A DNA stretch of 64,000 bases from a virus. How positions within the stretch are numbered: the first letter of the stretch is position 1; every line of letters begins with the position of its first letter. The notes beneath the pieces were generated by a model. It was not told the origin of the DNA. It made no database searches and saw nothing but the letters and a program-made list of their open reading frames with translations. Made by a program: the position numbers and the translations under genes. This document shows, one piece after another, positions 31,546-53,309 of this stretch. The stretch lies in IMG/VR virus record IMGVR_UViG_3300034159_000051, positions 32,001 to 96,000 of that record. The stretch is one strand, 5' to 3'.

Positions 31546-32178
31546 TTATACGCCGTAGGCGCGAACGCGCTCGACGACGTCTGCAAGCTCATTGTTAAAC
31601 CTATCTACTTCGTTTGACAAGAGCCGAATATAGGCCGATTCCCGGTAGGCCCTCACCTTGTAATGCATCGTCTTCGCGCTGGGCGGCTTGCGATAGTAGA
31701 CAAAGAGATCTGTCCATTCCCTTTCTGCGACCCAGAGCTGGCCCTGGACCTGGGCCTTGAATTTTGGCGGGAAATCGGCCTTGAGAATCATCTCGATAAT
31801 CAAGTCAGGCAGGCAGGTTTTGATCTCCAGCATGCCGGCGGCGGCGATCAGGGAATCGGGCGACGCGCCCTTCTCGCCATTCTTGATGAACCCGACCTGC
31901 ACCGGCTCAGAGTCAGTCAGGAAGGCGTAAAACTCGCGCGCCTCGGCCTCCAGGTCTTTTCCCCGCTGCATGTGACGGTTGGAGTAGCTCTCCATCGGCT
32001 CGCCGGAGATAATCTCCCCGGCGAGCTGCAGCATGTATTTTCGGCGCGTCAAGCTTTCGGGCGTATCGCGTCCTTTGGCAGAGACGGTCCCGAACCTAGA
32101 GGCCGTCGGGATGCCTTTCCTGACCTGAAACCATCGATCAGTGCCTTGCTCAATATCGTCAAAGATTTCAATCGTCAT
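31546..32178 (-). CDS. YqaJ / lambda-type exonuclease
   Basis: EQGTDRWFQVRKGIPTAS, GASPD, LEIK and QVQGQLWV motifs. Confidence 0.92.
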   Translation of the reverse strand: MTIEIFDDIEQGTDRWFQVRKGIPTASRFGTVSAKGRDTPESLTRRKYMLQLAGEIISGEPMESYSNRHMQRGKDLEAEAREFYAFLTDSEPVQVGFIKNGEKGASPDSLIAAAGMLEIKTCLPDLIIEMILKADFPPKFKAQVQGQLWVAEREWTDLFVYYRKPPSAKTMHYKVRAYRESAYIRLLSNEVDRFNNELADVVERVRAYGV

Positions 32179-47153: not shown

Positions 47154-47974
47154 TGAAAGATTTGACCCCCCTTTACAGGGACATCGAAAAGCTATTGCGT
47201 GAGATCGTCACCCAGCACGGCAAAGCTCTTATCGAGACGCAAAGCGAGTACGGCGCCGGCGCAATCTCCATCAACGTCACAGCGAAAGTTGGAATCGGCG
47301 GGAAAAACCATGAATTCTCACTCACGCTGGATGTGGACCGGGACGACAAAGACGAAACCGACGACGATGACGACGAAGAGGAGTGCTCCGGAGAATGGAA
47401 AATCCAGTAAAAATTGTGTCTCGCCCGACCCTCGAAATCAAGGTCACGCGCGGGGATACCCTGGAAACAAACAGCGACGTCCAGGTGTGGGTGAACGATT
47501 TTCTTTTTGTCTCAATCCATTATGATTGGCGCTTCACCTCAAACGCTCATCAATGGGATCTGGGAGAGCAAATCGCTGGTGCTCTAAGGAAGGCCGTCAA
47601 AGAGCACCCTGGGGTATCGTAGCCGTCCGGTTTTTGTGGTATCGTGGCTGGATTAAAAGAAAGGGATCAGATGACAAAAGAAAAACCAGTGAAGCCGCCG
47701 CGCGGCGTTGTCGCCATCATCGCCGGTCCGGATGGCCACGTTTGGGCGACCGCCAATGATTTCAACGATTACAGCCGAGACCGAGATAGCGAACAGCTCT
47801 GGGCGCAAACAATAAAAGTGAAGGAATTTGTCGCCTTCGAGCTTTTTAATCGGTCATGTAACCAGAATATCATCGGCGTAATTGAAGCGCACGAGCGCGA
47901 GGCCTTTATGCAGAGGCTCATTAGCAAAAGAGGCTTTCGCCTCACCATTCAAGCAATCGGCTACGAGGGATCAG

Positions 47975-48970
47975 ATGACAAGCAATTATAGGCGACCTAG
48001 CGATCTTCCGGGGCGCTACGCCCCAAGAGGCGGCGCCGCCGACGACAAAAAGACGGCGATGCAGCGCCAAGAAGAAAGAATCAAAGAGATCCTGGGGCCT
48101 TGGTGCACCGTCAAAGACAAGAATCCGCCGCATCCTATTTTCCCGCGCCATGTCCGTGATTCTCTTCAGAAATGGATGATCGAACTCACGCCCGAGGCGG
48201 CGGCCGGACTAAAAGCGCTCAAAACTGAGCCCAGGCGGTCCGCCCTGCTTCACGGGAAACCGGGAACAGGAAAAACCTCTTATACGCACACATTCGCGGC
48301 GCATATGGGGCTTCCCCTGGCGATCGTCGATTCCAACCGCGTCATTGAAAAATGGGTAGGAGAGTCGGCGGCGAACTGCGGGCGTCTCCTCAAGGCGATG
48401 GATAGCGTCTACGATCAATGCCTCATTTTCTTCGATGAGATCGACGCCCTGGCGACGGCGCGAACCGGCGAGGGCGGGGCATCCAGAGAGCGCGAGCAGG
48501 CCATGAACGTTCTCATGACCGGTCTGGAGGATTACAAGGGCATCTGGGTCGCAGCCACCAACCTTGAGTCGAACCTGGACGGCGCATTCTGGCGGCGTTT
48601 CAATTTGCAGGTCCATATTCCGATGCCAGGGCCTGCGGAGCGCTTTGCAATCATCCGAATGTACGCGGAGCCGCTTTATCCAAGCGATGACGCCACCCAG
48701 CTTTTGGTCGACGCCACCGCAAACGCATCGCCGGCGCTCATCAAGGATTTGATCCAAGGCGTGAAACGAAACATCGTTTTGTGGCCGATGATCTACCCAG
48801 GCCGCGAGTTGATCCCATCTGATCTATTTAGGGATGTCATCACCTCCCTCTCTCCGCCTCCAAAACAAGAAAAGCCGCCGCTATGGCTTACGGAGAGCGC
48901 CGTTGACGATCTCGATAGAATGGACTGGCCCTGGCGGGATACGCCGCCCGAAGGAGAAGACGAGGAATGA
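47975..48970 (+). CDS. AAA+ ATPase
   Basis: GKPGTGKT, KWVGES, FFDEIDA, ATN and LD.AFWRRF motifs; GAGGGATCAG-ATG start. Confidence 0.92.
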   Translation: MTSNYRRPSDLPGRYAPRGGAADDKKTAMQRQEERIKEILGPWCTVKDKNPPHPIFPRHVRDSLQKWMIELTPEAAAGLKALKTEPRRSALLHGKPGTGKTSYTHTFAAHMGLPLAIVDSNRVIEKWVGESAANCGRLLKAMDSVYDQCLIFFDEIDALATARTGEGGASREREQAMNVLMTGLEDYKGIWVAATNLESNLDGAFWRRFNLQVHIPMPGPAERFAIIRMYAEPLYPSDDATQLLVDATANASPALIKDLIQGVKRNIVLWPMIYPGRELIPSDLFRDVITSLSPPPKQEKPPLWLTESAVDDLDRMDWPWRDTPPEGEDEE

Positions 48971-49399: not shown

Positions 49400-49530
49400 C
49401 TTTGAAAGAGGGTCGGCCCAGAGAACATATCCATTCATAGGCCGTATTGCGGTTGCCGACTTTCTTTCAAAGCCGCGCCGGGGCCAAGCGCTGCCTGTAA
49501 CCCGATACCGGTTTTCTCTGGCGCGGCTTT
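49400..49530 (+). ncRNA. Two leader dual-spacer stem-loop units
   Basis: stem-GGCCC-AGAGAACAT-loop-TATTGCGGT-TGCC-stem; stem-GGCCA-AGCGCTGCC-TGTAACCCG-ATACCGGTT-stem. Confidence 0.65.
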
Positions 49531-49551: not shown

Positions 49552-50346
49552 ATGGAACACAACAAAGCAACGGAGACGCCAAGGTTCGCTACGCCTCCGG
49601 TGTTTGCCGTCTCTCAATTCGAAAAACAGCGCATGCTCATCCTCCATGCATGGTATTCCGATTTTATCGCTGAGGGCGGCAAGCCGGTTGAATTTATGCG
49701 CGAGGTTATCGTGCGTATCCACCGCGTTCAGACCGTTTTTGACGGCAAGCTGTCCGTCAACGCGTTGTTCGAACCCATCCCGCCCCGGGCGGATGATAAC
49801 CCCTTCGATTCCTCTTCGGCTGGCCCGGTTTCTGGCGCCGACGGCCACACCACCAACGCCAGCCGATCCCCCAATGAGCAGGGCCGAAAGGATGGCGCCG
49901 AAAGGCTGGTCGCTGATCGCCCTGCTCAGCATGAAAGCGCCTCCGGCCAGGAAGCAGACGCTCAAGGTCGCGAGCCGAGCGCCGGAAGCGCTCCCCAAGA
50001 CGGCGGGCGAGGTCATAATGACCTTGCCGGCAACGGCCGCCACGTTAGCGCCTCGCCCGTCCGTCGAAACACCGGTCCCAATGAGCTGCAGCGGGAAATC
50101 GCCCGAGAAGTCGCCCAATCGGCCGCCAAGACGATCCTGGAAACATTCCGGTTCGCGAACGGGTCCGCCCTCGGCGAGGTTTATCTTAACGACCTCGAAA
50201 ACTACGAGATGAAAAGCTCCGTTGACGCCTTTGTCGCCCGGCAAATCCGGCTCGCGTTCAAAGGCCACCCAAATTGCCGGGTCAAGGAGCTGCCTCTTGG
50301 GACCATTGAGGCGATCGTCAGCCGAGCCAACAAAGAGGCCGAGTGA
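49552..50346 (+). CDS. Hypothetical protein whose central linker is encoded by four guide-like units
   Basis: AAGGGATCAGA-ATG start; globular-looking ends; stop overlaps the start of the Nop-domain gene. Confidence 0.7.
   Translation: MEHNKATETPRFATPPVFAVSQFEKQRMLILHAWYSDFIAEGGKPVEFMREVIVRIHRVQTVFDGKLSVNALFEPIPPRADDNPFDSSSAGPVSGADGHTTNASRSPNEQGRKDGAERLVADRPAQHESASGQEADAQGREPSAGSAPQDGGRGHNDLAGNGRHVSASPVRRNTGPNELQREIAREVAQSAAKTILETFRFANGSALGEVYLNDLENYEMKSSVDAFVARQIRLAFKGHPNCRVKELPLGTIEAIVSRANKEAE
49818..50060 (+). ncRNA. Four dual-spacer stem-loop units inside the CDS
   Basis: Same stem-GGCCN-9nt-loop-9nt-CGCC-stem grammar as the downstream array. Confidence 0.75.
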
Positions 50347-51209
50347 TGGGCGAGGATATCGAAAGGCTCGTCGAGCAGATCCGCTATTGGCACCGGCAGC
50401 GCTGTTTCGCGATGGAACAGCGCAAGCGATCGGTTTTGGCCACGGCGGCTTTTTTGCGCATCGACCTCGGCTGGAACCCGGACCTTCCTAAAAAAGAGCG
50501 CGACGTCATCTCCGCCAAGGCGCTCGACATGCTTAAGCCGGGCGGCGTCGCCCCAGAACATCCTATGTTCGAAATGATCATGGCCTCCCATGCCGCGCGG
50601 GCGCCGTTTCTCGGCGTAGAGACAAAGGCGACGAAACAAATGGAAGCGCTCGCCAAGACGTTGCCGGTCTGGAACGCATGGGCGCGCGACGTCCGGGCGT
50701 TCGGCCCGCGATCGCTTGCCGTCATTGTCGGAGAGGCTGGAGACATTGGCTCCTACAGCACGCATTCGAAGCTTTGGAAACGCATGGGCCTCGCCGTCAT
50801 CAACGGCGTGCGGCAGGGCGGCCTGAAAAAGACGGCCAAAGCCTCGGAATGGATCGAGCACGGCTACAACGCCAAGCGCCGCGCATCGTCCTTTGTGATC
50901 GGAGATTGCCTTGTGAAGCAGGGCGCGGAGTTCCGCGAAGTCTATCTCGCCAGGAAGGAATATGAGCGCGCCAAGGCCATCGAGCGCGGTCTGATCGTTG
51001 CGCCGGCCGCCAAGATCCCAAAAGGCCAGGAGGAGCATTACATCTCCGACGGCCACATCCATAAGCGCAGCCAGCGCTACATGGAAAAGAAGCTCCTGCG
51101 CCGGTTATGGCAGGAATGGCGGAAGATCGGCAGGGAGGACATGACCCAACCTGGAGACGCCGACATCCCGCCGCTCGCTATGGAGCGCGTTAACGAGATC
51201 GCCGCATGA
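50343..51209 (+). CDS. Nop-domain RNA-binding protein, TIGR-TasA-like (IS110 C-terminal homolog, no nuclease domain)
   Basis: Coiled coil, then VRAFGPRSLAVIVGEAGDIGSYSTHSKLWKRMGLAV (Transposase_20/Nop-like), GYN..R and GHIHKRSQRYMEKKLL..LW..WR; no RuvC/DEDD or HNH domain visible; adjacent array. Confidence 0.85.
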   Translation: MMGEDIERLVEQIRYWHRQRCFAMEQRKRSVLATAAFLRIDLGWNPDLPKKERDVISAKALDMLKPGGVAPEHPMFEMIMASHAARAPFLGVETKATKQMEALAKTLPVWNAWARDVRAFGPRSLAVIVGEAGDIGSYSTHSKLWKRMGLAVINGVRQGGLKKTAKASEWIEHGYNAKRRASSFVIGDCLVKQGAEFREVYLARKEYERAKAIERGLIVAPAAKIPKGQEEHYISDGHIHKRSQRYMEKKLLRRLWQEWRKIGREDMTQPGDADIPPLAMERVNEIAA

Positions 51210-52128
51210 GCGGCGCGCGGGAGGCCAGTTCAGCTACGCCGAGCGGCCGCTTGGTTATCGCCTCCCGCGACTCGGTTAAGCAGGGCCAGCGTACTGACGC
51301 CGAGAGGCTGGTTATGGATCGCCCTGCTTTCGAATCAGGAGAGGCCATTGGCTAAGAGCCGCAAGGACATACTGCATCCGCCTCTCCTTTCCTTTTTCTC
51401 GGGTCACAGCAAACGAGCCGATAGGCCACGTCAACCTTTCCCGAGAATCCGGTTAAGCAGGGCCTTGCCAATAGATCCGAAAGGCCATGGTCCGGACGCC
51501 CTGCTTTCCCTTTTGCGAGGCCCAACACCAGCCGCCGAAAGGCCATCCTTTCTGCGCCTCGCAATCCCTTTTCCTTGGGCCAATACGTTCGCGCGAAAGC
51601 CAAGCTCGCATCGCCCAAGGTTCCCACTTTGCGAGGCCAAACTCGCGCTGCCGAAAGGCCATGGTTTCAGCACCTCGCAATCCCCTATGGGCGGGTCCAA
51701 GTCTCGTCGCCGCAAGGCCGAGGACCGAATTCCCGCCCAACCCAACGACGGAAGGCCAGCGATCGCGCTCCATCGAAGGTCATCGAATTGGCGCCTTCCG
51801 TCCCCCTCATTCAAAGTTTGCCGGGCCATTCATGAATTGCCGCACAGCCAAAGAGCTAACGCCCGGCGCCTTCTTTGTAGGGCCAGAACTATCGCGCCGG
51901 AAGGCCGCGTCGACTCTGCCCTGCAAAACTATTTCGCGAGGCCAGCTAGCGATTGGCGAAAGCCCAAACCAAAAACGCCTCGCGATCCTCAACGACGGAA
52001 GGCCATATTACGCGCGCGCTACAGCGCCATGGACTTTTCGCCTTCCGTCTTTCTATTCAGAGTTTGCCAGGACAGCCTTCTAATGCCTAACGGCCACCCC
52101 TGCTTTTCCTGGCGCTCTTCACAAGAGT

Positions 52129-52205
52129 GGTCCCGTAGCTCAACTGGACAGAGCGCCAGCCTTCTAAGCTGGGTGTTGGGGGTTCAAGTCCCTCCGGGAT
52201 CGCCA
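52129..52205 (+). tRNA. tRNA-Arg(TCT), embedded in the array
   Basis: GGTCCCG acceptor stem; CCAGC-CTTCTAA-GCTGG anticodon arm; GGTTCAAGTCC; encoded CCA. Confidence 0.95.
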
Positions 52206-52583
52206 ACCCTTTGCCGGGCCGGATTACTATCGCCGCAAGGCTATCCACGAAGCGCCCGGCGATCCCTTTGCGAGACCTCCATACGGATGCCGAAAGGCCA
52301 AAAATGGGACGTCTCGCATCCCTACAGCCCGGCCACCTCCTGCGCGCCGAGAGGTCAGTCAAACCACGCCGGGCTACTTCTTGCAGGGCCAAATCAGATG
52401 CGTCGAGAGTCCATTTTTCCGGCCGCCCTGCATCCTATCCGCTTCGGCGGGCGCGCGGCCGCGGATGGAAAGTCGAAAGGCCGCCCTTGTCTTGCCGCGC
52501 GCAACCCTTTGCCGGGCCACTGCCTAAGCGCCGAAAGGTCAGGTTATCACTGCCCGGCGATTCATTTACAAGGATGCGATTTC

Positions 52584-52883
52584 TTGAACGACTTTCCGAA
52601 AGCTCTCAATGAATGGCAATCCAAGCTCTACGATCTCGGATACCCGGGGCCTTATGAAGCGGGATCGATGATGATTGCCGCTACGCGAAAAAGAAGAATC
52701 GATAATTTTAGCCTTGTTAGATATTCCCCCAGGGACTGGCATGCCGAAGTAACATTCAAGCCCGACCAAAGGCCGGCAACTGTTGATCACCCTTATGGCT
52801 CCCTTGAGGGAAAGGGCAAGACCCCAGAAGAAGCCGTCGCAAATCTCATGATTGCGCATCCTGAACTTTGGCGGGTAGCATAA
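52584..52883 (+). CDS. Small hypothetical protein inserted in the array
   Basis: AAGGA then a TTG start; non-repetitive; ends GKTPEEAVANL, like 21191-21565 (GATPEEAVADL). Confidence 0.6.
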   Translation: MNDFPKALNEWQSKLYDLGYPGPYEAGSMMIAATRKRRIDNFSLVRYSPRDWHAEVTFKPDQRPATVDHPYGSLEGKGKTPEEAVANLMIAHPELWRVA

Positions 52884-53309
52884 TGCATCCTCTTTGCGAG
52901 GCCCATGAACTGGAGCCGATCGGCCTCATATGATTCGCCTTGCAATCCGAACGACGAAAGGCCATCCGACCTACGCCGAAAGGCTAGTTTGTAATCGCCT
53001 TCCGTCACCCCTTCCGCCTCTGGCGGGCGCGCGGCCATACGGCCATAGCCGCAAGGCCACTGCAGCGTCGCCGCGCGCAAAGTTTGTCTGGCCTCCATGC
53101 GGACGCCGAAGGCCAAGCGTATAGCGCCAGACAAACCCATTCCGACGGGCCATGGGAGTCTCGCCGAAAGGTCGTTCTTCAGACGCCCGTCGGAACCTTC
53201 TTGCGCTGTGACTGGCGAAGCAGTTATAGGATCCCTTGCGGTCTGAGGGAGGGAAGCCTGATCCGGTTCAGTTTTGCGTTAGTGGGGACACGCAAACACG
53301 GATCATCCT

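Follow-up and report, generated by a model that had tools for sequence, protein, structure and literature searches.

Covariation of the last spacer bases in a phage-borne stem-loop TIGR-TasA array and in related loci

The window analysed here is a stretch of 64,000 nucleotides, positions 32,001 to 96,000 of IMG/VR record IMGVR_UViG_3300034159_000051. The full record, of 129,260 bp with direct terminal repeats, is a phage genome carrying a stem-loop TIGR array. The array surrounds a tasA-like gene, and each of its units holds two 9-nt spacers, A and B. This work concerns the last bases of the two spacers, A9 and B9, which covary as a base pair. The covariation is real, specific to this one pair of positions, confined to the unit and family-wide; it occurs in two array architectures.

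The tasA-like gene (50343..51209, + strand) is an open reading frame (ORF) of 288 aa whose product has a coiled coil plus a Nop domain and no nuclease domain. The protein has no Pfam match, and 637 homologues were found at E <= 0.001. A profile from 38 of these homologues matches PDB 9mty_A, the TIGR-TasR entry, over residues 97-269, which are the Nop part (E 6.4e-12). The AlphaFold2 model (pLDDT 86) is helical, with long N-terminal helices at residues 2-41 and 76-104. Its best Foldseek match is also 9mty (E 2.7e-5), followed by several TasH-tigRNA entries and, at a distance, by the IS110-family recombinases ISCro4 and IS621 (E 0.05-0.2). The Nop domain and the coiled-coil dimerisation region expected of TIGR-Tas proteins are thus present in the profile match, the model and the Foldseek comparison, and no HNH or RuvC nuclease domain was found in the 288-aa protein by Pfam or in the model, longer fused forms not having been searched for. 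Judged from sequence and predicted fold, the protein is a TasA-type TIGR-associated protein, because both match TIGR-TasR and no extra nuclease domain is attached.

Downstream of the gene lie 26 hairpin units with a spacing of about 58 nt (51216-53195, + strand), from which a covariance model, R1, was built. Units 1-15 occupy 51216..52114 (R1 matches of 38-52 bits), units 16-21 occupy 52211..52560 and units 22-26 occupy 52894..53195, all matched by R1. The three sub-arrays are divided by a tRNA-Arg(tct) gene (52129..52205, +; ARAGORN, with 65.3 bits to the Rfam tRNA model) and by a 102-aa ORF without Pfam match (52575..52883, +), which is in frame inside a longer ORF. Each unit begins with an outer stem ending in GGC, followed by CA, spacer A (9 nt), one variable base x and a GCC-GNRA-GGC mini-hairpin; then come CA, spacer B (9 nt, or 10 nt in unit 19), C or T, and the closing stem that starts with GCC. 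The alignment consensus is GGCCA, N9, C-GCC, twice per unit, and the 26 units hold two spacers each, within the 8-12 nt expected of TIGR-Tas, between box C (CCA-like) and box D (UG/CG).

The outer stem has 8-11 continuous bp in 22/26 units, counted from the closing pair, and 5 in unit 23; the count is 0 in units 4, 8 and 9 solely from a mismatched closing pair. Stem sequences vary between units and their palindromic flanks replace edge repeats, which is a feature of the stem-loop subtype; Tandem Repeats Finder gave no match on the array because of this variation. In the DNA letters, CTT occurs between 8 nt upstream and 3 nt inside the 5′ stem base in 8/26 units, and at the 3′ base in several others; CUU at the stem base is described as a processing site in stem-loop TIGR (Xu 2026, preprint 10.64898/2026.09.09.750476). 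Some outer stems are repeated in units whose spacers are unrelated (10/14/23, 20/24, 2/5, 6/8/22 and 11/16/21), and in two related loci, L067 and L073, units have the stem and spacer B in common and differ in spacer A. These recurring stems suggest duplication of units followed by replacement of spacers.

Upstream of the gene, units were found on the + strand at 49816-49866 (R1 40.7 bits), 49876-49927 (41.1 bits), 49939-49989 (weak, 12.8 bits) and 50005-50058 (30.4 bits). These upstream units all lie inside an ORF of 264 aa without Pfam match (49552-50346, +), of which they encode the low-complexity middle and whose stop overlaps the Tas start. They are reminiscent of the tigRNAs that Xu 2026 describes inside genes, except that the ORF which holds them here is the neighbouring one. 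Two further weak candidates (49409-49463 and 49470-49529) make up the six upstream units listed in an earlier note on the window, which was made from the letters alone.

By its sequence features, the locus adds one more ordinary member to the phage-borne stem-loop TIGR-TasA systems. Like those described by Faure 2025 (PMC12045711, section 9) and Xu 2026, and like PlTasA (Guan 2026), it is carried by a phage and encodes a small Nop protein that lacks a nuclease domain. It also shares with them hairpins repeated in tandem whose palindromic stems vary, CCA (box C) and C/T-G (box D) around each of two 9-nt spacers, and units that flank the gene on either side and also occur within coding sequence. 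It differs in that the loop between its spacers is the GCC-GNRA-GGC mini-hairpin. Complementarity of the last spacer bases is not reported in the parts of this literature that we draw on, and Faure 2025 states the opposite in general terms.

The units of the window were parsed by coordinates, and A9, the last base of spacer A, was paired with the last base of spacer B. Over the 26 downstream units this gave 15 Watson-Crick pairs, 5 G-U pairs and 6 mismatches, exactly the hand count of the earlier note, and the 6-7 Watson-Crick pairs that the note had taken as the chance level agree with 6.4/26 computed from column composition. Unit 19, with its 10-nt spacer B, is Watson-Crick if the last base is used; with the ninth base instead the total becomes 14. 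No other cell of the 9x9 matrix scores as high; the per-cell permutation p is 1.5e-4 to 2e-4, and the family-wise p over the 81 A x B cells is 0.03 when anchored at the 3′ end and 0.12 when anchored at the 5′ end, where unit 19 differs. In a MAFFT alignment, 73.1% of the units have standard pairs at these positions, compared with 44.9 +/- 8.9 after shuffling (2/500 shuffles as high); the five slid controls with 26 cells gave 30.8-57.7%, the +2 control being a single cell. Taken alone, the array is suggestive of covariation and not conclusive.

Signal was sought in relatives of the locus. Loci encoding TasA-like relatives were taken from genomes (17 loci, from Aminobacter, Mesorhizobium, Rhodoplanes and several metagenome-assembled genomes), from viral contigs (83 loci, 3 found by protein alone and 80 by alignment) and from metagenomes (80 loci). 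Stem-loop units were collected with a parser whose score depends on the stem, on the letters of boxes C and D and on the inner closing pair, and which is blind to A9 and B9; it yielded 791 clustered forward matches and 2 on the reverse strand. Identical spacer pairs were removed, and expectations were obtained from within-locus shuffles. The genome and viral loci gave 168/381 Watson-Crick pairs at A9-B9 against 105 expected (Z 8.8), and new units from metagenomes gave 107/247 against 69.0 (Z 6.0). Over all stem-loop units outside this genome (628 non-redundant units, 115 loci) the count is 275 against 173.8 (Z 10.6), while the rest of the 12x12 matrix, which also covers the box and x positions, stays within |Z| 2.9. 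In an Infernal alignment of 145 units of other loci, 62.2% have standard pairs against 42.0 +/- 4.0, and 0/500 shuffles were as high. The slid controls fell at 35.7-44.1%, except the +1 control, in which the partner of A9 is the conserved pyrimidine of box D and which reached 55.9% with a low covariation score. The covariation proposed in the earlier note thus persists in a larger set of homologous arrays.

In the stem-loop units all four Watson-Crick combinations are enriched (1.3-2.1x) and G-U stays neutral at about 1.07x; the remaining combinations fall to 0.38-0.93 of expectation, A-G and C-A just marginally (0.92 and 0.93). The Watson-Crick share is 38-48% across bins of Tas identity from under 34% to 50-70%. 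No heterogeneity was found across stem-loop loci (chi-square p 0.32), nor by loop type, box variants or unit quality. The four credible upstream units of the window have 0 Watson-Crick and 2 G-U pairs, read from the sequence, so the absence of a trend that the earlier note saw upstream stands for these units; as a general difference it does not, since the other stem-loop loci give 177/411 Watson-Crick pairs upstream and 93/210 downstream, and the contrast in this array is a small-sample effect for that reason. Position 9 resembles the other spacer positions in base composition, in stem-loop loci as in the dual-repeat loci with a variable position 9 treated below. In neighbour controls the within-unit Z was 7.6 and 6.8, A9-B9 across units gave -1.4, and same-spacer neighbours across units gave 2.0 and 2.5.

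The classes with 8- or 10-nt spacers, considered in order to see at which of the two boxes, C or D, the signal is anchored, are near the level of reverse-strand noise; the units parsed with an 8-nt spacer B, a noisy class with 5 reverse-strand matches, are complementary from last base to last base in 10/17 cases. In seven units of locus L064 (694-1960) one additional base separates the pyrimidine of box D from the stem, and by eye their A9 and B9 form 3 Watson-Crick and 4 G-U pairs. On one Rhodoplanes elegans scaffold the Tas locus is present twice, at a distance of about 63 kb (L006 and L007), with identical match statistics.

Dual-repeat arrays, in which short conserved edge and loop repeats replace the stems, form the second architecture. 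A generic pattern, CCA-N9-TG with an 18-nt period, was tried as an array finder and discarded, as it retrieved mostly collagen-like repeat genes and 11 true chains. Its matches (within L181-L260) lie mostly on the opposite strand of collagen-like Gly-X-Y genes of viral contigs, which is a trap for motif-based TIGR finders. A second scan, with the edge repeat of the 11 true chains, gave 77 stretches, and units were parsed in 71 dual-repeat loci, 45/71 of which have a Tas-profile match inside the fetched DNA. The 434 non-redundant units of the 71 loci have 135 Watson-Crick pairs at A9-B9 against 85.8 expected (Z 7.9), and this is the sole outstanding cell of the matrix. With a period of 36 nt, the within-unit Z is 6.2 and 5.7. 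The pair B9 of one unit and A9 of the next, which flanks one edge repeat but belongs to different tigRNAs, gives Z 0.6, and other cross-unit pairs give Z -1.4 to 1.4. Position 9 is variable in 42 of the loci, where 116/239 units are Watson-Crick and 26 are G-U. In 20 others it is G in both spacers (111/146 units G/G, 5 Watson-Crick). Fixed-G and variable-9 loci (among L181-L367) have the same edge repeat.

That chance, a parsing artefact or shared ancestry of the units produced this signal is hardly credible. The family-wise p of this array alone would allow it, but three independent sets with within-locus shuffles and the Infernal alignment replicate the signal, the parser ignores the two bases concerned and matched the reverse strand just twice, and the neighbour-unit controls are null. 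A look for compensatory changes in orthologous units met just 1 near-identical spacer pair among the 791 units, which likewise argues against common descent.

The penetrance of the Watson-Crick pair is 44% in stem-loop units, 49% in variable-9 dual-repeat units and 58% in this array, and it is even across loci. A simple mixture estimate puts the constrained units at about 22%, about 26% and about 44%, respectively. The earlier note had offered two alternatives to a simple abutting 9+9 target, a central base pair read by both spacers or a pairing of the two bases within the RNA. A plain 9+9 abutting arrangement is indeed not true of all units, but neither alternative can be obligatory, because just about 44-58% of units are Watson-Crick. 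Both alternatives fit the enrichment of Watson-Crick pairs, the tolerance of G-U and the depletion of the rest, and the data do not decide between them.

We propose, tentatively and at slightly less than an even chance, that in a sizeable fraction of units the two spacers share a central base pair and so have a 17-bp footprint. The tigRNA from each unit would pair with both strands of a DNA target, one strand per 9-nt spacer. A1 and B1, next to box C, would lie at the outer junctions of the unwound DNA, and A9 and B9, next to box D, would come together at the target centre. Where the spacers overlap by one position, A9 and B9 would read both strands of the same central base pair, a one-base-pair core, and would be complementary for that reason. 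The remaining units may have abutting or gapped spacing (-1, 0, +1, +2) or a tolerated mismatch at the end.

The orientation follows from published geometry. Under the C-5 rule, the 3′ overhangs left by cleavage are 8 nt long (Faure 2025, PMC12045711, sections 7-8), box C of PlTasA is at the unwinding junction (Guan 2026, preprint 10.64898/2026.08.11.744272), and the spacer B duplex of SpTasH is contiguous with the flanking DNA duplex; together these reports place A1 and B1 at the outer ends and A9 and B9 at the centre. Spacing appears to be flexible, since TaTasR tolerates gaps of 1 and 2 bp (Faure 2025, PMC12045711).

The second alternative, an RNA-RNA pair that A9 and B9 would form at some stage, be it the tigRNA precursor, the free ribonucleoprotein (RNP) or the bound complex, and that would leave guides of effectively 8+8 nt, is unlikely, with a chance that is still appreciable. 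The pair-type pattern is that of RNA base pairing, and partial penetrance fits a weak structural preference. SpTasH is reported to use 8-bp heteroduplexes (Guan 2026 preprint), the 10/17 complementary units with an 8-nt spacer B agree with such a contact within the limits of that noisy class, and the repeat-like fixed G of the 20 dual-repeat loci indicates that position 9 can have a role other than guiding. But G/G is no standard pair, and in dual-repeat units G-U falls below expectation (ratios 0.71 and 0.87; Z -1.9 and -0.9). The pair would also be isolated, as its nested neighbours are silent (A8-x′ Z -0.3, x-B8 Z -0.8). In the TaTasR and PlTasA structures, as presented by Faure 2025 and Guan 2026, all nine spacer bases are paired to DNA. 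Moreover, the neighbour of A9 is box D′, part of the loop motif, that of B9 is box D, part of the edge motif, and the two motifs bind different protomers (Faure 2025, PMC12045711); by analogy with Nop5 RNPs, the two bases would be far apart, at opposite ends of the particle. The shared base pair is favoured over the RNA contact because the published geometry puts A9 and B9 at the target centre.

Several observations weigh against the shared base pair itself. Cryo-electron microscopy with designed 18-bp targets shows 9+9 pairing (Faure 2025, Xu 2026, Guan 2026), and penetrances of 44%, 49% and 58% rule out an obligatory shared base pair. In the 20 fixed-G loci the prevalence of G/G means that such a reading is impossible there. 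The dinucleotide adjacency test of 16-, 17- and 18-bp junctions gave Z 4.0 for a9|b8′ and Z 0.4 for a8|b8′, values that are confounded by the covariation itself, and it has little power in dual-repeat arrays. A class with a two-base overlap is weakly enriched in stem-loop units (66 vs 48.7, Z 2.9) and not in dual-repeat units.

The searches for natural targets point the same way. Reconstructed 16-, 17- and 18-mers of 30 own units, the opposite spacer order included, were sought on both strands of the 129-kb genome with <=3 mismatches. No self-target with 0-1 mismatch was found in the phage genome; two matches had 2 mismatches, both 16-mers, and at 2-3 mismatches the real pairs gave about as many matches as three controls with shuffled partners. 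A cross-target search for exact 8+gap+8 matches (gap -2 to +7) with 1,084 units in 2.8 Mb of loci found 20, against about 22 expected (ten rounds of partner shuffling gave 220), and none of the gaps showed an excess. Among the matches listed, the central bases of those with gaps of 1 and 2 differ from A9 and B9. The comparison of target lengths with shuffled controls that the earlier note had recommended therefore yielded no excess, either in the phage genome or in the 2.8 Mb of loci.

The simple arrangement of contiguous 18-mers could yield the covariation if targets with two identical central bases on one strand were preferred, and this we regard as improbable. Designed 18-bp targets do work and are fully paired (Faure 2025, Xu 2026, Guan 2026), and the preference could arise from a one-base duplication at acquisition or from DNA shape at the strand-swap point. 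It could also be a mechanistic relic of spacer acquisition, itself an open matter according to Faure 2025 and Xu 2026, but a relic of a 17-bp duplex at acquisition is in effect the shared base pair again. There is no known reason why AA/CC/GG/TT should be favoured and GA/TC neutral, nor why AG/CT and all purine-pyrimidine and pyrimidine-purine steps should be depleted. The pattern tracks the isostericity of base pairs and not a property of dinucleotide steps.

To return to the shared central base pair, the closest precedent for such an overlap is the related IS110 bridge RNA. In IS621 (Durrant 2024, PMC11208160) the two guide segments, paired with opposite strands of one target, overlap at a central core that both of them read, and the RNA-binding domain of IS110 proteins is related to the Nop domain (Faure 2025, PMC12045711, section 4), in line with the fold matches to IS621 and ISCro4 given above. 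On the other hand, the IS110 core consists of two bases, a conserved CT, at which strands are exchanged by a DEDD recombinase, whereas the core proposed here would be one variable base pair of partial penetrance with no recombinase. The protein of the window has no N-terminal catalytic (DEDD) domain, and the locus has 26 tandem units in place of one two-loop RNA.

Dual-repeat TIGR systems (TaTasR, PDB 9MTY; SpTasH) share the box C/box D frame, the 9-nt spacers and the A9-B9 covariation, and differ in their repeats and in the fixation of G at position 9 in some loci; the experiments reported for them, as far as the sources cited here describe them, used designed abutting or gapped targets and no overlapping one. 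Archaeal box C/D sRNPs, with a Nop5 dimer, also have a bipartite guide between C/D and C′/D′ and a coiled-coil Nop dimer (Faure 2025, PMC12045711). They differ in guiding RNA methylation and in that their two guides act on separate RNA substrates, and therefore no covariation between guide ends would be expected in them.

As far as our search went, the covariation is unreported, and it is discounted by the founding paper. No prior report of A9-B9 covariation or of a 17-bp target was found in the literature, although supplementary tables could hold one. Faure 2025 (PMC12045711, section 7) states that spacers A and B show no obvious covariation, and on that ground argued against spacer overlap. 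A position-specific covariation restricted to the unit, in >1,000 units of two architectures, reopens this question. Faure 2025 (PMC12045711) and Xu 2026 name as open questions where TIGR spacers come from and what their natural targets are, and the question of targets becomes more testable with a rule of reconstructed 17-bp targets with a shared centre.

With a chance clearly short of even, TIGR-Tas guides in general may have a one-base-pair core, with many natural protospacers of 17 bp, a homologue of the IS110 bridge RNA core that would be a footprint of the acquisition of spacer pairs from a duplex. If so, this would be the first sequence rule for finding natural TIGR targets and would change how they are searched for; guide design for TasR and TasA tools could change as well, and the evolutionary link to IS110 bridge RNAs would be stronger. 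If the RNA contact holds instead, the A9-B9 pair would add a new element to the structure of tigRNAs.

The neighbours of the locus include an AAA ATPase gene (47882-48970, +; PF00004, E 8e-25) and an RlaP-type nucleotidyltransferase gene (54420-55472, -; PF10127, E 2e-9). Beyond the tRNA gene inserted in the array, five further phage tRNA genes are present: those for Lys, Thr, Gln and Arg(acg) are clustered at 56542-56993 on the - strand, and that for Met is located at 61210-61286 on the + strand.

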